From assembly GCF_006345805.1 (NCBI RefSeq), contig NC_042998.1:88846001-88910000 (forward strand): 64,000 bases of DNA, read 5' to 3'. A program made the position numbers and the translations under genes. The stretch comes from Octopus sinensis. Taxonomy: Eukaryota. The notes below the pieces were generated by a model that worked only from the letters and a program-made list of their open reading frames with translations, was not told the DNA's origin and searched no databases. Below are positions 1,530 through 48,431 of the stretch, one piece after another. Each line of letters opens with the position of its first letter. Position 1 is the stretch's first letter.

Positions 1530-3194
1530 ATACACATATCTACTTAACTTGCAGTTTGTTAAGTAAATTTACAACCTATGTCTTTCTTAATTTTTTATCA
1601 TTTCACTGTTAAAAGATTATACAATCCATTTTTTGAGTAATATTTATAAATTATCATCCCTGTTTAAGTCAGTTTAGTTGTGACACCTCAGTCATCACTT
1701 AGCTAGATCCTAGGCATAACAGTATTTTAAAAGGCACACTACAAAAGAATAAAAATGGTTAAGAACCACTGATTATTTTGTATGTGTGTGTTTCTGCGTC
1801 TCCACCCTGCCACTGCTTCATTACATGTAATATAGTGGTTTAGTAAAAGACACCCTTTGGAATAAGTATTGGTGGCGATTTGTTTGACTAAATGTCTAAT
1901 TCTCTCACAATTCTATCATTTCACCACCCTGGTCTGGTATCCTTCTCTTTATTGACCCTGTGTGAAGGCTGAAGATAGCCCCAGTGGAATTTGGACTTGA
2001 GATGCAGAAAGCCAGAGCAAATATCTGGAAGCGTTTTATCCAGTATTCTAACAGCTCTGTGAATTCGCTGCTGAGAGAAAGAAAGAGAGTGAGAGTGAGG
2101 TATTTGTGAATATTGAAGCTGGGTTCAGTTAGTTTCCATAGTTATGAAAAAAAAATTCCCCCAAACAACCCAATACCCACCAGAAGTATTATAATGCTTA
2201 TTCTAATTCAGTAATATTGTGAGCTAATATCAGGAAATAGAACATTATTTCAGAGGGTTTTTTTTGTATTTTCCTTCTTTAAAAGACTAAAAAATATGTT
2301 TTTTTTTAAAGAATTGAAATCACTTACAAAATCCTGTATATATTCATAAGCATTTGTACAGGTAAATACGTACACTTATATGTGTGTGTGTGTGTGTGTG
2401 TGTATATATACATGGATACTTGCATATATACACATACACATATATACATGTTTGTATGTGTGTGTGTATCCACACACACACATATATGTTTATGTATGTA
2501 TAAGATATGAATTAGAAGATATGAAAATATGACCACATCTGTGTAAATCTAATAGTATGATAGCAGTCATCATCAACTTTATTTTAATATATTATCAAGC
2601 TTATCTCAATTATCTTGAAATATTGACTACTTGTGTGTATGTATGTAATATCTAGCTATGTCTGTGTTTCATATATATATTGATTTTATGTTCATATCCA
2701 TGTACAGCATTGTTTCAATATTTTATGTTTTGTTCTTTTAATCCAAGCTGTTAATGCCATGGCATCTAAGAAATGTCAAGAGACATTTATCAACTTAGTG
2801 GACCCTACCCCTCTTCAGGGTGTTTTCCAACCTTAAATTATAGTATTTCTCCAGACTTCCAGTAAATTGTTATATTATCTACTTTTCAATGTGGTTGGGA
2901 AGCAAACATCTTAAGCATACAGACATACCCATGTCATATATGTATAAAAATAGAGTCGGTTTGGAAATCTTTTTACAATTCAAAAGAATGTATAAGTATC
3001 AAAGTAACAAGATATTGTGTTACCTTAAGGATAATTTAATAATTACTTTGTTTTGGGTAAAATACTCATCAACAGGCGAAAACAAAGAAATATTTCCATT
3101 GGCTTTGATGGAAGGGTTTATGTTCAGTCTCATCTCTACATTTGTTGTTACAGTAAAAATATCATCAGCTGCAGCAGGGTTGATTGTAGTAGGA

Positions 3195-3461
3195 GTACCA
3201 ATGATGTCTGTACAAACCTTTCTATGCAATGTATGCCAGGAGGTCTGCAAATCTAATGGAGGCCTCAAAAGACATTTTAAGATACACAAACATCCGAACT
3301 TAACTGCAGCTCTTGTTGGTCCAAATCAGATATGCAATGATATACAATGTGGGTGTCTTTTCAAAACCTTCTCTGGTTTAAAAAGTCACATTAGATGCCA
3401 TGCTGGTTCTAAGATGTAGGTACAGGAGGTGGTCAAACTCTGCATAAGGTGTAGACAGCCA

Positions 3462-3465: not shown

Positions 3466-3527
<62 letters not shown>

Positions 3528-3534
<7 letters not shown>

Positions 3535-3765
3535 GGCGCAGGAAGGGCTGTGTGGTAAGTAACTTGCTTACCAACCTGGGTGGCAGTGGAGCCAGGCTCC
3601 TCAATGTGAAAATTCTTCCTGTGGCTGATTGGGTTGGGTCAAAAGCTGTTTTGACCCAACCCAATCAGCCACAGGAAGAATTTTCGCATTGAGGAGCCTG
3701 GCTCCACTGCCACCCAGGTTGGTAAGCAAGCTACTTACCACACAGCCCCTCCTGTGCCTATATAT
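3528..3765. repeat. Long palindrome, 117-bp arms, loop GCTG (3645-3648)
   Basis: Arms are reverse-complementary with 4 mismatches. Confidence 0.97.
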
Positions 3766-4238
3766 CAGCCATGAATCCGGTTATGCCAGATTTTTTGAAA
3801 ATGGCCAGGTGCAGGTTTCCAGTGATTCTTGAGGGTCGCCCCCACAGGTGTCATTGGTGCCTAGAGCCTGGCCATATAAAGAAGAACTGTCCTCTGGAGC
3901 AGTCAATTGAGACCTCTGTAAAAGAGGGAACGAAGGCGGCTGAGGAGACAGAGGACTCCTCAGGGAAGGGCCGCAAGAGGAAGACGGTGAGCAACAATGG
4001 GTGCTCACCGAAGATTCGTGGATATGTATGTATATGTTTGTGTGTCTGTGTTTGTCCCCCTCAACATCGCTTGGCAACAGATGCTGTGTGTTTACATCCC
4101 CATATCTTAGCAGTTTGGCAAGAGAGACCGATAGAATAAGCACTAGGCTTACAAAGAATAAGTCCTGAGGTCGATTTGCTCGATTAAAGGCATTGCTCCA
4201 GCATGGCCACAGTCAAATGACTGAAACAAATAAAAGAA
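3535..4238 (+). mobile_element. Chimeric unit copy 1: SINE head + LINE ORF1 fragment with foldback + SINE 3' half
   Basis: Head GGCGCAGGAAGGGCTGTGTGGTAAGTAACTTGCTTACCAACC and tail ...CCAGCATGGCCACAGTCAAATGACTGAAACAAATAAAAG match the intact SINE at 59454-59847. Confidence 0.85.
3762..4020 (+). mobile_element. L1/Tx1-like ORF1 (gag-like) fragment with CCHC zinc knuckle
   Basis: VILEGRPHRCHWCLEPGHIKKNCP = CX2CX4HX4C followed by a low-complexity charged tail. Confidence 0.7.
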
Positions 4239-4243
4239 TATAT

Positions 4244-4310
<67 letters not shown>

Positions 4311-5033
4311 GGCGCAGGAAGGGCTGTGTGGTAAGTAACTTGCTTACCAACCTGGGTGGCAGTGGAGCCAGGCTCCTCAATGTGAAAATTCTTCCTGTGG
4401 CTGATTGGGTTGGGTCAAAAGCTGTTTTGACCCACCCAATCAGCCACAGGAAGAATTTTCGCATTGAGGAGCCTGGCTCCACTGCCACCCAGGTTGGTAA
4501 GCAAGCTACTTACCACACAGCCCCTCCTGTGCCTATATATCAGCCATGAATCCGGTTATGCCAGATTTTTTGAAAATGGCCAGGTGCAGGTTTCCAGTGA
4601 TTCTTGAGGGTCGCCCCCACAGGTGTCATTGGTGCCTAGAGCCTGGCCATATAAAGAAGAACTGTCCTCTGGAGCAAGGTGGAGTCCTGGAGCAGTCAAT
4701 TGAGACCTCTGTAAAAGAGGGAACGAAGGCGGCTGAGGAGACAGAGGACTCCTCAGGGAAGGGCCGCAAGAGGAAGACGGTGAGCAACAATGGGTGCTCA
4801 CCGAAGATTCGTGGATATGTATGTATATGTTTGTGTGTCTGTGTTTGTCCCCCTCAACATCGCTTGGCAACAGATGCTGGTGTGTTTACATCCCCATATC
4901 TTAGCAGTTTGGCAAGAGAGACCGATAGAATAAGCACTAGGCTTACAAAGAATAAGTCCTGAGGTCGATTTGCTCGATTAAAGGCATTGCTCCAGCATGG
5001 CCACAGTCAAATGACTGAAACAAATAAAAGAAT
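4311..5033 (+). mobile_element. Chimeric unit copy 2 (tandem duplicate; palindrome at ~4304-4540, CCHC ORF from 4546)
   Basis: Near-identical to 3535-4238; differs by an 18-bp indel and two 1-bp indels. Confidence 0.9.
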
Positions 5034-5231
5034 ATATATATATATATATATATATAATAAATATTAGGGAATAAATCCAAATTTACAGGGAAAAAATCAG
5101 ATTTAGGATTAAATCCAATTTTATAGTAAAATATTATATAATATTAATTCGAGACAAAACCACTATTTTGCAAAACAAACAAGGAAAGACTTAATCATAC
5201 ATAAAAATTTTTAATATAAAGAAATAAACCG

Positions 5232-5274
5232 CCACTACAATCGTTTCATGTCTTCAATGACATTCGTCAGGTGG
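5232..5274 (-). ncRNA. Minimal type I hammerhead ribozyme motif
   Basis: Exact reverse complement of 5340-5382. Confidence 0.75.
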
Positions 5275-5339
5275 ATTTTCGATCTCCTAATCTGTTTTAA
5301 TTTATGAAGTCATAAATTAAAACAGATTAGATCGAAAAT

Positions 5340-5382
5340 CCACCTGACGAATGTCATTGAAGACATGAAACGATTGTAGTGG
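5340..5382 (+). ncRNA. Minimal type I hammerhead ribozyme motif
   Basis: CCAC-CTGACGA-ATGTC(ATTGAA)GACAT-GAAA-C(GATT)G-TA-GTGG: stem I CCAC/GTGG, intact core boxes, 5-bp stem II, minimal stem III, GUA cleavage triplet. Confidence 0.75.
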
Positions 5383-5917
5383 CAGTTTATTTCTTTATAT
5401 TAAAAATTTTTATGTATTGATTAAGTCTTTCCTTGTTTGTTTTGCAAAATAGTGGTTTTGTCTCGAATTAATATTATATATATATATATATATATAAGCT
5501 GTTCAATTTGCCCTTCAGTCACCATACCTTAATGAATAGAAACAATGTAGGGTAGTAAGGACTCTTTGGTCTTGTGGCATTCAAAGCTACTTCACTGGTT
5601 CTGGTACAGTGATAAAATTTCTCCAGTACATTCTGTCAATTGAGCAGTCTTAATAAGGGAATCTAAAAAGCATGTCAAAGTAGAACATGAATGAGATGTG
5701 GACCTGCATCTCATCTAGGAAGGCCATAACACCAAATAAAGATATTAGACTGTGATGACTCATCCAACTCATTCCAGTATGGAAAGTGGGCATAAAAGGA
5801 AGATTGTGTGTGTGTGTTTAATTACATATGCAGTTTTATATGTAGGAACCTATATTTGATCTTTGCTGCTCAATTACACTTGATTCTGTTTCAAATATAG
5901 TTTAAACATACATACAA

Positions 5918-11141: not shown

Positions 11142-11985
11142 CAAAGGGGTACTCAAAAGTAACCGGAAACATTCTCTGTTGGACAAGCTAATTGTAGTTC
11201 TGGCTTCTGCTTCTAGAAGCCACTTGATGCAACCCTCAGGCATCAGTTTACCAACTGGTTTCATTGGGTGATTTTGTACTGCCACTTGGTGTGTCTTTGT
11301 TTTGCATTGCTTCTCCCCTGTTTGTTGATTTTTGCGATGGCTAAAACAAAGGAACAGCATGCTTCTGTGAAATTCTGTTTTGTGCTGGGGAAAATTCAAA
11401 TAGTTTACAAAGATGCTGTCATGAGCAAAACACAAGTTTACGAGTGGTTTTCATGCTTTAGGAATGGTCACTTGTCGCTTGAAGACCAACCTCGTTCTGG
11501 GCAACCGTTAACCTCCCAAACGAATGGAGGGCCATCGCTGAACAATTGACAAACTTGTTGATATGATTGGTGTGTCATGGAGCACCTGCCAACGAATTTT
11601 GAGCAAGGAATTGCGAATGAAAAGAGTTGCAGCAAAATTTGTGCCTCACTTGCTCACGGAAGATCAAAAGCAATTATGACTGAATGCATATCATGAACTG
11701 AAAGAAAAGTTGGATGTTGAGCTGGGCCTTTTTTCCAAAGGTCATCACTAGTGATGAAAGCTTGTGCTACAGAATTTGCAGATGTGGAAGACATGAAGAA
11801 AAAACAATGAAGGCATTAAAAGGCATCACTTCATAAGTGTTCAAGGACTGCTTTAAACATTAGAAAACACATCTGGATTGATGCATTGCTTCAAATGGAG
11901 AATAATGTGATGGCAATAAAAGTGTAAACATGTAAAACTAAGTGAATAAAATAATATTGCAAACTTACTCCTGGTTTTTTTTGGG
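11142..11985 (+). mobile_element. Internally deleted, degenerate mariner element
   Basis: TA then TIR-like CAAAGGGGTACTCAAAAGTAACCGGAA; translations EQHASVKFCFVLGK, VYEWFSCFRNGHLSLEDQPRSGQP, AAKFVPHLLTEDQK, VITSDES; decayed right TIR. Confidence 0.9.
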
Positions 11986-40391: not shown

Positions 40392-41990
40392 TGCAAAATT
40401 TATAAGGCTCCTTGATAGTAAAACATCGTAACTGGCTGTAGGGACCTGCAAGCATAGTTAAGTGTGACCTGTGGCAATTTTGTATGAAATTTGGAGCACA
40501 GATGAACTGAAAAAAGCATCTAATGTATGCAAGTGAAACAATCATGCAGGTTGGGATAGTTGATGTATCTGGATTATGTGTGTTTGTTGGTAAAGTGCCT
40601 TTTGGAAGGAAATAAAGTAGATCTTAGGATAACATATCTCAAAGATGCAGTCACATGAAACTAAAGTGAACAGGGATTCACCTTACTGCAGATCTGCCCT
40701 ATCTATGCTAGTTTAGTAAGAAAAAAATATTCATCATCACCTTTTAATGTCCATCTATATTGGTTCTAAGAACTGCATTGTACTCCAATGTCTGTTTCGT
40801 CTATGTTTCTATGGTTGGATGCTCTTTCCAAATGCCAGCCATTTAAGTACCTTGTAAACAGAGTACTTTTTCATGGCACCAGCACTAGTGAAGTCACTAT
40901 GCAACTTTTAAAACAAAGAACTCATTCATCTTGGTTATACTAGAGTAAAGATGGATGTAGATTTATGCTAGAAGACCAGAGGTTAAAGTATGAAAGAAGG
41001 GGCCAGAACAGAACAGGTTTCTTGTTGTTGAGAAGTTACATAACTCCTCACATTGTAGAAGAGTGGGTGGGGGTAATTGGGATGGAACTAGAAAGAGAGA
41101 TGAAATAGTGGTACTGGGATGTCAGGGTGAACCCTGAATGTATAAGAAGGTGAATAGAGGTGAGTGCAGACAGAAGAACAGGGAGTGAGAGTGGATTGAT
41201 GTTGCAAGTGTATATGAAGAGAGTGATGGATGATTGGAGATATAGAGTTGGTGAAGGGACAAATATAGTGAAGAACAAGGTTGATGAAAAATTCAAGGAG
41301 GGACAATGATAGACAACAGGAAACACAATCTATTGCCAAGTTTAATGATAATGTCAAGATACTTAAACTTAAAGCATCTTGCTATTATATAGCTGGCTGT
41401 TAAGATGTAGGGTTACTGAAGTGCACATTAAGATTCTCCATTGCCATATTGTTCATTAGTATTTTAAGACTAAAACTCAGCCAGTGTAAGTAATGATTAA
41501 TATTACATGGGTATGGCTCTGTTGAAATAAGATACTCTTTTAATAGTTAATGTGATGGGTCTTTATAAGCTATGTTTTACACATAACCAAAGTTATTGTG
41601 AGTTTCTGCTTTTGAATTTCTTATACTTTATTTTCTTGAATATTGAGGTTATTATGAGCAAGGTTGTACCTGTAGGATCAGGTGTTATTAATAGTAGGCA
41701 CTCTACATTAAAAATGAGGTGAGATAAATCATGAGAATATACTACATAAGTGACCCATACACTCTGTATGCCTTTGACAAAAAAGAAGACATGACGAGGC
41801 AATGGTTTGAAAATATATATTTCAACAAACAACAGAAACAGCAAAGCAAGAAACCGTTGTAGCACTGGTCCAGTGGTGTAATCTGCAAATAAAGTTGTAT
41901 TGACTAAATTAATTTTGAAATGATGCTTCAGTTTTTTTATTACTTAACTGATTCTCATTGTCATTTTATTTATTTCTTAATTTTTTGCAG

Positions 41991-42112
41991 CCAGTAAACT
42001 TGAGTACACTTGCGCTTACTGAAAGTGCATTAGCCAGGTATGAAAAAACGGAAGCTGAAACTTGGACTGGTAATCGTCATCCACAGTATGAGATGATACA
42101 TGGTCAGAACAG
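41991..42112 (+). CDS. HYCC1: Internal coding exon of a hyccin/FAM126 homologue (PI4KA complex subunit)
   Basis: Pyrimidine tract plus TTTTTTGCAG acceptor, AG|GTTAGT donor; PVNLSTLALTESALARYEKTEAETWTGNRHPQYEMIHGQN(R) aligns with human hyccin [39 protein letters not shown] as I recall it; phase 0 start and phase 2 end. Confidence 0.88.
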
Positions 42113-44014
42113 GTTAGTTGACACTTTTTGCTCTTATTAACTTTTATCATTGGAAAGTGCAGTAAGTTGGTGGAATTGGTAGAGCACCAGGAAATACTAT
42201 GTGCCAGTTGTTCCATGTTTTTCTATTCTGAGTTTAAATTCTGTCAAGTACAACTTTGCTTTTCACTTTTTCAAAGTAGATAAAATAAAATGCCAATCAA
42301 GTACTAGGGTTAATCTAATTGGCTAACCCTTCCCCTCAAAATTGCTCGCTTTGAACCTAAATTAGAGATTATATCTACCATTGTATTTAGAGAACAAGTT
42401 AATATATCCTTTTTCATTGGGATATTTCATTGGAGTAGTGATCATCATCATCATCATTTATTTAAAGTCTACTTGCATGGGTCAGAGACGGAGTTTATTC
42501 AAGCAGATTTTCTACAGCTGGATGCCCATCCTGTCACCAACCCTCGCCTATTTTCAAGCAAAATAATATTTCTGCATGGTCAGACATGTCTTTCATGGAA
42601 GAATGGATTACATCACTGGACCAGTACTACATGGCTTGTATGATGATAATGCTCATTGATAGCTACCATGCAGTGTCACGATAAGGGGAGAGACAGAAAG
42701 CACACACACACACACACACACATGTAAATGTAACAATGTACACATATATATAAATATGACATGTATGAGTTTATTATTTGATTGGGTTTCAAAATTCCAG
42801 TTGTTGTTCATTCAACAGCTTTCCTTTCTGTTTGTATTTGTTTGGTAGATTTCTCTCTAAACTAACATAATTTTCAGAGCTAGAAGTATTCTAAAAATTT
42901 GATTTAAAGTAAAACAAAACATTTAAAAAATTTTTAAAGTAATTAATTTGCTAAACTTAATATGAATTACTGTTTAGCTACTTCTATCTCTCCCAACTCA
43001 TTGCCATTTTACTAGTGTCAGTCTTAGAAAATTGAAGTATACTTCAATTTCCTACATAACTATTTTGAGAAATCCTCCAGCTTATTTTTGTCAAATCTTG
43101 TAGTCAAGCAATTTTATGTTGACCTATATTAGTTTGAAGGCTTTTACTCATAGCTCTCTAGCTAACCCAAATGAAATGCTATAATTATTTAGGCTTTATT
43201 TTCACCAATTAGAAGCTTACGGTTGAATTTTCTGAGTCTTTTGTAGTATTTTACTGTGTTAAGATAATTTCATTCTGTAGAGAAAAAAGATACAAAACAT
43301 TTTTGTTTTGTACATAATGAATGATCTGTTCATTTGTTTTTTCATTAGCATTTACCTTTGTAATTATAAAATAGTAATTTCAAGTTACCATAATACAAGC
43401 ATCCTGTGTATTTTTAGATTATGTCTGGTTCCAACTATAAGCTTTCACTATATATCTCTTATTATAAAAGGCAGATTTTATCTGCCTCCCTTTGGGAGTT
43501 ATACAAATCTACAATATAGGATTTCTTCAATTACAATTTACCTAGCAGTTTTAAGAGTACAATGCATCGCGTCATGCCAGGTCCAGTTTTTAAAATTTAA
43601 ACTCCAATTAAGCAAAATTTACAGAAAACTCACATTCTGGTGTGTGTGTCAAATGCTTTTCTTAGTCTGGTTTACACCACACGCAAACGCACACACACAG
43701 TGGGCAACGAATAAAATGAAAGTAAATAGCAACAGAGTGATTTGAGGAAGACTAAAGTGAAAGTATTCTGTCTATGCCGCTGATAGATACATGAGTAAAA
43801 TGTATGGGAAGCTAAGAGCTAAGAGTGAGTGAAAATGTTCTTGGAAGAGAGTAATTAGTAATAAAGTAAAACACTCATACATACATACATACATACATAC
43901 ATACATACATACATACATACATACATACATACAATATCACACACACATACATACACACACACATACATACATACACACATACATACATACATACATATAC
44001 ATACATACATACAT

Positions 44015-44047
<33 letters not shown>

Positions 44048-44161
44048 ACACACAGTATTGAAGCTTGAGAACAATCAGATACATTTGCAACACATCTGTT
44101 GAAAATATTATTGTTCACACACATACATATACATATATACATACAGACAGACAGACAGATA

Positions 44162-44197
<36 letters not shown>

Positions 44198-44199
44198 AT

Positions 44200-44612
44200 C
44201 CAGCATGGCCACAACCTCAAGGCTGAAACATATAAAAGAATAACAGAATATAAATGTGTGCAAAGTACAAGAAATATTAATGCAGTATATGGGGATTGGA
44301 CAATAAGCGTAAGGCAGTGTCAATGGTGGTTCCAGAAATCCCGAGCCATAAACTACAGCCTAGAAGACGAGCCTCATCCTGAAAGATCTGTAGAACTCGA
44401 CAAGTACATCCTAAAAACCCTGGTGGAACAAAATATCATCGTAACTGTTGAGGAACTAGCAGAGAAGCTTGGATTTGGTCATTCAACCATTCATTGAGAC
44501 CTGTGTGCTATCGGAAAAGTCAGCAAATTGGGTCAATGGGTTCCTCACGAACTTTCCGAGTCTAATTGCATGCAGAGAGTGAATGTATGCTTTTCTTTGC
44601 TGTCATATCTCA
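44200..44612 (+). mobile_element. mariner transposase N-terminal fragment
   Basis: STRNINAVYGDWTISVRQCQWWFQK, SLEDEPHPERS, TVEELAEKLGFGHSTIH, then GQWVPHELS after a stop. Confidence 0.9.
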
Positions 44613-45712: not shown

Positions 45713-48431
45713 CCTTTTAATGCTCAGATTAATCTGTAAAATGTAATGCTTATTTGTTTACATTATTTTGAATTATTCAGGTTCAAGAGGGGTGCCCACA
45801 ATATTTGCTTGTAACTTTGTTAAATTTTTGCAAACAGATTTGAAATTTTGTCAGTGGGTGTTTATATAACAGTGGTTTATATTTATGTAATTTTAGCTGA
45901 TCTTCCTGATTAAATTTGACTTTTACGGGCAGGTAAATTTAATTAACAGGTGTAAAAGCAATAACATCATGGATAAACACTAAAATTGAAATTCTTAATG
46001 CATTTTGCCTGTTTGATTTATTACTGAAATTATCCCAGATGTCAACCGTCAACAATTTTGCCACTTTTCAAGATGAGGTACATTAATTTGAATTAATTAA
46101 TATACAGGTATAATCGGTACAAAATTTTTTCCTTATATTTCATTCAAACATTTTCATTGGCTATGTACTCTTATACAATTTAATGAATACATTTAATATA
46201 AACAAGCTCATTAACAGGTGAGACAAAGGTGAATACAGGTGTGTAACATACTGAAAATTAATATGATAATGATGATTTCTCACTTTCATGTATTATTTGT
46301 AATAAAATGAAAGGAATATATGATAGTATTACTATCAAACAACAAAATATAGTTATGCTATATTTGTTTTGTGAAACTGTCCCTAGCAAACTTTACACAA
46401 GGACACTTTGCAAAAGAAACACATATATGAGGTCTCGACCTGATATCCTTTCAGAGTTTTTCTTTTTTACAGCGAATGTAGTCTGCAAACTTATTTCCTT
46501 CCATTTATCTTTTCTACTTTATGGAAGTCAATATTTTCTCTGTTGACATCTACCTCAGTTAATTTTACTTTTCTCCCAGTTCTGTGCTTCCTGGAAGAAA
46601 AACTGTTATGTAACTGAGATGCGATGTCAACCCAAAATTTCAAATGGTCGTAGTCCTCTGGTGACAAAGTACCTTGTGGCTTTTTACATAAACAATATAT
46701 GAATTAACTATAGTTAAATACACTAAAAACCACAAAATGTACCTCCACCATTTCTCCTATGTCATCCAACTGGGTAGTATGCTTGATACTGGTCAACCCC
46801 ACCCATATATTTATTATAGCAAATATTCATGGCTGTGTGGTTAGGGAGCTTGCTTCCTAGCTACATGGTTTAGGGTTCAGTCCCACTGCGTGGCACTTTG
46901 GGCAGGTGTCTTCTACTATAGCCCCGAGCCAACCGAAGCTTTGTGATTGAATTCGGTAGGCGGAAGTTACTGCCATGTGTGTATATGTGCATGTAGGTGC
47001 TCAGTGCCTCTCCAAAAGAGAGAGAGAGAGGGTTTTCCCTCAGCACCAACACCAGGTTGTTCATTACTAGACAGAAATAAAATCTGTTTTTTGTCTTTGT
47101 ATAAAGTTGCTAACAAATTTTGTTTTTGCATTTGTAGAATATCCCCTCTTTTTTTAAATTTTGTTTTCATTTCATGGGTTAAACCTTTGCAGTTGCCCAT
47201 AGTAGTACTTCACATGTAACTATTTACACAGGCAAGATGTTCTGCCAAAGCCACTGAAGAAAAAAAGTGGTCAAAACAGAAGTGTTGGTGTTGATAGTGA
47301 AATGGTTTAGTTAGATATCATACTACATCATATCCCAATCCATATGGTCTGTTTCCACTATACTTTTTACCTGTTTAGACATTAAAGTGCACACAATATC
47401 CTGTGTCTTGATTCACAGACTTCCCATACCTTGATGCCCCATTTAATGGATTTGTCGGGAATGTATTCTGTCCTTATAGTCTATCATGACTTCATCTGTA
47501 CTAAGATTTTTCCCAGGGAGATACACTGTTTTATACCTATCACAAAGTAAATCAATTACAGAGTGTACTTTATACAGGGGATTATAGTTTGAGTTGATTT
47601 TGCTGGGGTTTTTAGTGGAATCGACTAAATGGAAATATTGAGATATTTTTGAATACCTTGTCTTAGATATAATGCTGGAGATATATGGATCACCATACGT
47701 TATATCAGGACTCCAGTAGTTCCACAGTCGAGGAAGCTGCTTGATACCAAACATAATGTTTATAGTAAAAAAAAGCTCACATTTCTGCAGTATCAGTTGA
47801 CTTCCACAAATAGAAATTATTTGTTGAGCATATTTATTTTTTTCCTCCGTGACAATTTCCAAAAAACTTTTTGGTAAAAATAAGAATAGTCCAATGGTTG
47901 AGCATTGGGAGGTAGTTAGTGTTGTGGACCAGTCTTTTCTGTGAAATCAGTAATTGTAGTTGATGTAGTAATCTTCAACCATGTTGCTAAAATGTTTTCA
48001 ATATTATTTTCATCACTTTCATTATCAAAATCTTTGTCCAATGAAGATTCATAAATATCAATATCAGATTTGTCCAAAGACAAATCACTGCTGTTTTCAT
48101 TTATATTTGGTACATCCTCAAGAGTAAAACCTTCAAAGTCGGAATCGCTACTTGCTGACACCCTATCGTTAAAAACTAAGATATACACTTTATCTTCAAA
48201 TGTTGAAAAAGCCAAGAAGTCTCGGAATTTTCACAGTATTTTTATTTGAATAAAGGCAGGAAATGGCTTTATCTCACATTATTTCAAAGCTACAAGAATT
48301 CAATAACATGACTTGTTTATTTTTTTTTTAGCGATTTTGTAGAGGAATTAGATACAGCTGGATTTGGCTAGTTCAGACAAATAAAGGGGAATTATTTTCG
48401 ACCAGTTTTGGCCAGTTTGAACACTAAAGAG
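45713..48431 (-). mobile_element. Degenerate piggyBac transposon with both termini
   Basis: TTAA at 45709-45712 and 48432-48435, decayed TIRs; acidic N-terminus (47916-48215); GIKQLPRLWNYWS...YFHLVD...PGKNLSTDEVMI (47443-47862); KWGIKVW; C-terminal ETSYMCFFCKVSLC (~46380-46450). Confidence 0.9.
46828..46975 (+). mobile_element. Family A SINE inserted in the piggyBac
   Basis: CATGGCTGTGTGGTTAGGGAGCTTGCTTCC...GGGTTCAGTCCCACTGCGTGGCAC. Confidence 0.85.

Follow-up and report, generated by a model that had tools for sequence, protein, structure and literature searches.

A palindromic insert in a hyccin intron of Octopus sinensis reads as a stub of a Hydra-type Penelope-like retroelement, with two intron-less leader copies

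Inverted pseudo-LTRs (pLTRs), tails, hammerheads in the pLTR, and (TA)n targeting are already known from Penelope-like elements (PLEs). The Hydra clade, which includes Hydra-1_Obim, has been described by Craig et al. (2021; PMC8557442, here and below in the portions available to us). Like the element studied here, its members have DKT, a CxCX5C linker, and CxxC/CxH around the E and N of the endonuclease (EN), lack CCHH, and insert into (TA)n; their hammerhead is built in the same way, with an extra base after CUGANGA, a 4-bp stem II, and a palindromic stem III. They have RWK and are generally <3 kb in size, whereas our element has RIKWK and a unit of ~5.7 kb; its pLTR, unlike theirs, contains an intron of 1-1.6 kb and a tail of ~80 nt. 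The hammerhead listed there for Hydra-1_Obim differs in sequence from ours, and Hydra-1_Obim is noted as having no pLTR. The same portions of PMC8557442 call intron retention by PLEs a peculiarity of unexplained significance and contain no description of spliced copies.

Penelope of Drosophila virilis and the Adineta Penelopes (PMC2377424 and PMC3846280, as far as their accessible text goes) resemble our family in their internal pLTR start site, 5'UTR intron ending beside the hammerhead, inverted 5'-truncated pLTR, one-sided tail, and Inr-like TCACT. Their genomic copies keep the intron, however, whereas our family has hundreds of spliced head-to-head arms. The accessible part of PMC3846280 ascribes head-to-head junctions to self-priming on an antisense template, and the antisense template was proposed to account for intron retention as well. 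In vitro work on Poseidon_Ac (Frangieh et al. 2024, PMC11167929, in its accessible sections) found that both target strands are cut and extended and that two reverse transcription (RT) starts bound the tail, which fits our family. The tail of Poseidon_Ac lies inside the open reading frame (ORF), whereas ours, ~80 nt long, lies ~60 nt before the ATG; the Poseidon_Ac hammerhead was dispensable for insertion, and a word search of PMC11167929 returned no discussion of palindromes or spliced copies. Non-LTR retrozymes, according to the accessible text of a preprint (10.64898/2026.07.22.740005), are, as here, short noncoding PLE derivatives with a type I hammerhead, but they are head-to-tail tandems. 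A literature search that left most subscription papers outside its scope returned no report of spliced PLE leader copies.

The window that we analyzed is a stretch of 64,000 nucleotides of Octopus sinensis DNA. An earlier note on it had described a 346-bp palindrome whose arms differ by one mismatch, one 1-nt bulge, and one 3-nt bulge. Our alignment of the arms (5135-5310 and 5310-5480) agrees on the mismatch and both gaps, and the 346 bp hold for the arms (5135-5480), but the whole insert is longer: it extends leftward to ~5054 by an extra ~80-nt tail, present on the left arm only. The note had overlooked this tail, as well as the most informative feature of the locus, its spliced arms. The features are as follows.

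5031..5053, no strand: (TA)n target, left flank, read from the sequence; family copies end in (TA)n
5054..5134, minus strand: one-sided ~80-nt tail, leader positions ~177-257, with two ~38-nt repeats; such a tail is on one arm in 91/99 palindromes
5135..5283, minus strand: left arm, corresponding to 5' leader exon 2 of the element; 4 differences in ~258 nt from the exons of the ORF-bearing copy L207
5232..5274, minus strand: antisense to the host gene, a minimal type I hammerhead motif whose cut is predicted after 5236
5284..5310, minus strand: left arm, 27-nt exon 1 from the putative start site, exactly joined to exon 2
5306..5314, no strand: head-to-head junction, tailed arm to leader base 1, untailed arm from base 4
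5310..5330, plus strand: right arm, exon 1 bases 4-24
5331..5480, plus strand: right arm, exon 2, no tail, ending at the upstream tail boundary
5340..5382, plus strand: sense to host pre-mRNA, a minimal type I hammerhead motif whose cut is predicted after 5378
5477..5496, no strand: (TA)n target, right flank
41991..42112, plus strand: next hyccin (FAM126) host exon, from exon matches

The 3-nt gap between the arms falls precisely on a splice junction. The left arm carries the exact spliced junction at the site of the parent's GT-AG intron of 1.0-1.6 kb; the right arm has lost the 3 nt that precede this junction, a private deletion between AG repeats. (TA)n adjoins the insert on both sides, and no target-site duplication was discernible at these flanks. 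The unequal ends, variable centre, and spliced junction set the insert apart from MITEs and DNA transposons, which have equal terminal inverted repeats and a target-site duplication, and a single head-to-head pair at 5054-5480 sets it apart from non-LTR retrozymes, with their head-to-tail tandem units and a hammerhead in each. Judged by its sequence, the insert is a stub of a Hydra-type PLE, one of hundreds of intron-less head-to-head leader copies.

The earlier proposal that the palindrome is an inverted pLTR of a PLE was borne out by the parent element, which we found in two copies of the same layout, L213 and L207; the left arm is ~98% identical to the L207 exons. The near-whole copy L213 comprises a pLTR, ATG, RT, linker, GIY-YIG, a ~1.7-kb 3'UTR, and a pLTR; its period is ~5.7 kb. 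In its 5' part the hammerhead exon is followed by the tail and, ~60 nt on, by the ATG, and its 3' pLTR runs from promoter region through exon 1, intron, and exon 2 to the tail. The pLTR intron follows the 27-nt exon 1, starts with GTATGT, ends with TTTTAG right before the hammerhead exon, and measures 1006-1588 nt in 12 arms; the start region carries an Inr-like TCACTTC. Partial-tandem pLTRs and an inverted 5'-truncated copy were seen in L213, L207, and L208. Hairpins after the two tail start sites had no significance in L207 (z -0.6 and -0.9).

Pfam and PDB searches with the parent protein gave no RT or EN match, so its identity rests on motifs. LYRDD and VY..YIG in L208 and L213 point to a single ORF with RT plus GIY-YIG at its C terminus, although the copies are frameshifted. 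A motif scan against section 11 of PMC8557442 found DKT, CxCX5C, and CxxC/CxH present and CCHH absent, with RIKWK at the RWK position of the Hydra clade. By these motifs the protein would belong to the Hydra clade of that section; our first label, the Neptune clade, was dropped after the scan. Insertion into (TA)n, a Hydra clade trait, is found in the family, and so is the one-sided tail of PLEs, at ~80 nt rather than the usual 30-40. The size of <3 kb typical of the Hydra clade, a tendency and not a diagnostic, is exceeded owing to the 3'UTR and intron. The intron itself is kept in 13/13 ORF-linked hammerhead copies but lost in the insert and in the 242 + 167 junction matches described below; since intron retention is a habit of PLEs and not diagnostic, we still class the parent among PLEs and treat the stub as a variant.

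Several related sequences were met along the way. A GIY-YIG ORF just after the tail in L132 was rejected as part of the element, being the end of another family's ORF, and the hammerhead exon was absent from all 29 other loci fetched for that ORF (L142-L170). This second Hydra-type family (L132:3190-3800; L214-L220) has DKT, a C-terminal GIY-YIG, and 305 EN-region candidates, and in L132 one copy of the studied family lies immediately upstream of its EN. Tandem mini-elements of the studied family occur in L276, L278-L280, L283-L284, L289-L293, and L298-L300, with units of 241-456 nt. Each unit contains a portion of exon 2 (in some cases lacking the hammerhead), then the tail, the post-tail region, and 60-130 nt from the start of the ORF, looped back. 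These retrozyme-like arrays begin with an inverted copy and keep the post-tail region that is missing from the palindromic stubs. A minisatellite in L068:6095-7465 is made of the ~40-nt tail repeat.

The genome held 1298 candidates for the arm, 40 of which were scored. Matches to the spliced junction with ≤1 mismatch numbered 242 in subfamily A1 and 167 in other subfamilies (73 exact), and the unspliced counterpart gave 117 acceptor and 44 donor junctions, counts from patterns of different lengths that allow no exact ratios. In A2, exon 1 ends with GAAA and is followed by GT, so its exact join cannot be a microhomology deletion. Nearly all short copies extend no further than one 5' point: of 42 spliced arms reaching base 1, 41 end within 6 nt of it, whereas 14 of 14 intron-keeping arms continue upstream. 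The intron persists in every one of the 13 ORF-linked copies that have a hammerhead, and 2 further ORF-linked copies lack the motif. In a tree of 60 spliced and 60 unspliced sequences, out of 174 distinct haplotypes and over ~140 columns, a single spliced clade was rejected (p-AU 3.9e-5), and 7 hammerhead haplotypes are common to both classes. An extra G precedes base 1 in 22 of 42 arms, 10 of which are explained by the partner arm; this is only suggestive of cap copying.

From these sequences we infer two RNA classes, a spliced mRNA that would start in the pLTR and a read-through RNA in which the downstream pLTR would be mostly unspliced. The spliced arms require a sense template in this family, which argues against the antisense-template idea put forward in the accessible part of PMC3846280. 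One spliced copy, L239 (L252:1250-1520), has ~70 nt of upstream promoter sequence and would represent a spliced read-through RNA. At the centre of L085, both arms have a noncanonical junction, from which most of the intron is gone and its last ~10 nt are kept.

Next to splicing, the pairing of the arms follows a rule. Our 99 short palindromes (103 less four duplicate insertions) come from loci chosen by pattern and not at random. Among them, 91 combine one tailed and one untailed arm, 3 are tailless, 5 are unclear, and two tails never occur together; if the tail-selected loci are set aside, the proportion is 73/81. The long pairs follow the same rule in 20 of 22 cases, the exceptions being one pair cut by the locus end and one internal pLTR. 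We infer that the tail ends are RT start sites. The 91 short pairs divide into 28 non-nested ones, in which each arm holds sequence that the other lacks, 16 nested ones, and 47 with similar ends; in 7 of the 28 the untailed arm reaches base 1, with bases 1-3 present. The junction at 5306..5314 is of the family's commonest type, seen 11 times against 0 for its mirror form. Short pairs were spliced in both arms in 45 cases and mixed in none, and long pairs were unspliced/unspliced (15), spliced/spliced (2), mixed (1), or unclear (4). In the mixed pair, L270:3050-6310, a 2.95-kb unspliced arm is joined to a spliced tailed arm of the same rare haplotype; one of these arms cannot have been copied from the other. 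Subfamilies A1 and A2 were never mixed in 46 pairs, which speaks for a single template per pair. The distance between A2 arms was 0.006 within loci versus 0.031 between them, and the A1 values (0.0104 versus 0.0127) are uninformative. Asymmetric head-to-head joints of the family also occur in contigs of two other independent runs (X1 and X3), so the palindrome class is no artefact of this assembly. The repeats of C12650 were rejected as independent copies because they are segmental duplicates.

We propose, with a probability of about 0.68, that the palindrome consists of two intron-less 5' leader copies, reverse transcribed on spliced sense mRNA from primers at both cut target strands, usually with one RNA serving both. 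The tail/no-tail pairs, the non-nested arms, and L270 fit such priming, as do the two RT starts of Poseidon_Ac. The pLTR promoter would yield a capped mRNA whose first intron is spliced, and the element protein would bind near the tail and cut both strands of the (TA)n. The outer tail boundary would then be the priming site for one target end and the inner boundary that for the other, assisted by AT microhomology; both cDNAs would run to the RNA 5' end, only ~180-260 nt off, and their 3' ends would join via 0-3-nt microhomology or a template switch. The long intron-keeping copies would arise when this reaction takes place on read-through RNA, at its downstream pLTR, whose intron would mostly remain unspliced. 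In L1 twin priming, two target ends prime on one RNA and produce an inversion, the arms of which cover nonoverlapping parts of the RNA. Our model shares the two-end priming, but both arms studied here copy the same ~180 nt. Against twin priming stands the polarity of the commonest junction, which needs an ordered template switch as its explanation, and the splice-mixed pair is a single case (L270). The likeness of the arms could also be due to gene conversion, or to activity of the subfamilies in different periods.

Twin priming might form part of a wider scheme, to which we give somewhat less than even odds. Here, one mRNA would have two fates: the intron of the cap-proximal pLTR would be spliced for translation and that of the identical downstream pLTR kept, and twin priming at either pLTR would give short spliced palindromes or long intron-keeping elements. 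If true, this scheme would unite PLE intron retention, inverted pLTRs, and the one-sided tail under a sense template, and L270 would be a record of both ends of a single RNA. An origin of palindromes from spliced mRNA bears on how Penelope-type elements jump. The family further bears on why PLEs keep introns, the peculiarity noted in the accessible portions of PMC8557442, and on the choice between an antisense and a sense template for head-to-head copies, for which PMC3846280, in its accessible part, asks for experiments. The tail/no-tail rule would tie the two in vitro start sites given in the accessible sections of PMC11167929 to the two target strands.

Could both arms stem from a single cDNA instead? 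A tail-primed cDNA on spliced sense mRNA might fold back and prime its own second strand, the hairpin then opening into a palindrome. The 11-to-0 polarity of the commonest junction, with a 1-2-bp snap-back at that point, speaks for such an event, as do the constant lack of two-tailed pairs and the private variants common to both arms, for example the odd junction of L085. Self-priming has also been proposed in the accessible part of PMC3846280, though on antisense RNA. Non-nested arms could be ascribed to later central deletions in unstable palindromes, but they make up 28/91 pairs, and 7 of them have bases 1-3 in the untailed arm. In addition, the spliced arm of L270 cannot be copied from its unspliced arm, and the asymmetric joints recur in contigs of independent runs. 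We regard fold-back as unlikely.

Far less probable is the mobilization, as a unit, of one or a few intronless masters (SINE-, MITE-, or RNA-circle-like). In its favor, L239 is spliced and has ~70 nt of upstream promoter sequence, and the tandem mini-elements show that nonautonomous members of the family exist. However, this explanation is largely refuted by the tree, in which the spliced copies do not form one clade but are polyphyletic; in each subfamily they match the exons of copies that keep the intron. Moreover, centres and truncation points vary between loci, the stub ends are unequal, and the stubs lack the post-tail region that the mini-elements keep.

The earlier note placed the palindrome in a probable host intron. 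Starting from a weak Pfam match at 41952-42137, we found six matches to hyccin exons, correctly ordered along the plus strand of C2. The preceding exon ends 5.4 kb upstream of the window and joins in frame to the 41991-42112 exon, which in turn joins in frame to the following one. Since ordered plus-strand exons that join in frame lie on both sides, the insert is inside a hyccin intron, of ~47 kb (an approximate length, as the window contains an N gap). It follows from the strand that host pre-mRNA yields the masking (left) arm first, in line with the note's view that the antisense arm precedes and sequesters the motif; folding of the full-length transcript predicts that the other arm pairs with the motif (P = 0.999).

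The outward-reading hammerhead motif itself, CCAC-CTGACGA-ATGTC-ATTGAA-GACAT-GAAA-CGATTG-TA-GTGG, is present in both arms as noted (plus strand 5340-5382, minus strand 5274-5232), with the predicted plus-strand cut after 5378. The note had also suggested a covariance-model or descriptor search. Rfam gave no hammerhead match, and its below-threshold, hairpin-driven miRNA matches were rejected; a type I descriptor matched twice in the window versus 0 in each of 100 shuffles. The core (CUGANGA, GAAA, UH), stems I and II, and palindromic stem III are those of a type I hammerhead. In the monomer, stem III has only 1-2 bp, and the minimum-energy fold (-7.8; z -1.0) is a different one from that of the hammerhead (-5.1 kcal/mol). 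The 8-nt stem III self-pairs at -5.8 kcal/mol, the usual dimer design, as the note had recognized. Published minimal PLE hammerheads do not cleave as monomers (PMC4209133), and that of Poseidon_Ac cuts only with protein (PMC11167929, accessible sections). Because a dimer or protein is needed and the motif is predicted to base pair with the other arm, the hammerhead in the 5054-5480 insert is likely silent. Genomic 5' ends are not piled up at the predicted cut (2/81 versus 3.9 expected), and we rejected hammerhead cleavage as their source.

The motif occurs 267 times exactly in the genome. The common haplotypes share the same core and stems I and II; they differ at N7, at the base that follows the core, in loop II, and in the stem III palindrome. 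Compensatory double changes, the covariation that the note had named as a check, were absent from the invariant stems in a sample that was partly core-selected and in which 34/215 copies were unparsed. The constancy of core and stems suits selection in the parent lineage.

That the palindrome explains why the motif is tolerated, as the note had supposed, was not supported: the palindrome is the family's default insertion product, and among 141 spliced arms with a complete motif, counted irrespective of genic context, 35 have a partial partner only and 21 are solo. With 56 arms lacking a full antisense partner, masking is not required for persistence. A-to-I editing is high in coleoid cephalopods, and the note had imagined that editing might expose the ribozyme; however, A>G differences in two runs taken to be RNA were also present in DNA runs, with no RNA-only A>G site, in a comparison of contigs only that counts as weak evidence. 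The idea that the host intron retains or uses a ribozyme that masks itself, perhaps unmasked by ADAR or processed to siRNA, would draw on the hyccin location, the masking arm transcribed first, and the predicted pairing. Set against it are the youth of the copy (~98% identity to the parent copy), its default shape, the 56 arms without a full partner, the unfavored monomer fold, and the lack of RNA-only sites, and we give this idea very little credence. Without the upstream promoter and post-tail regions the stub is likely a dead end, and the insert at 5054-5480 is probably an ordinary, inert retroelement scar, although the variant class of which it is a member is informative. Perfect palindromes are known to arise as artefacts and no contig of other runs spans the whole locus, but a chimeric fold-back read in the library or assembly is very unlikely, given arms that are unequal in a fixed manner (one-sided tail), centres that differ across loci, and the joints in X1 and X3.

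Other repeats surround the insert. Beside it, at window positions 3493-5048, lies a ~775-bp tandem duplication with (TA)n and a 110-117-bp inverted repeat, which we take to resemble a SINE head; the same duplication holds a CCHC-like coding fragment and a SINE-like 3' part. A weak C2H2 zinc-finger match at 2844-3416 (E 8e-4) is probably the end of a LINE ORF. Remnants of Mariner-type HTH domains and of a DDE_Tnp_1_7 transposase were seen in hyccin introns at 11217-11546, 44069-44494, and 47446-47946.
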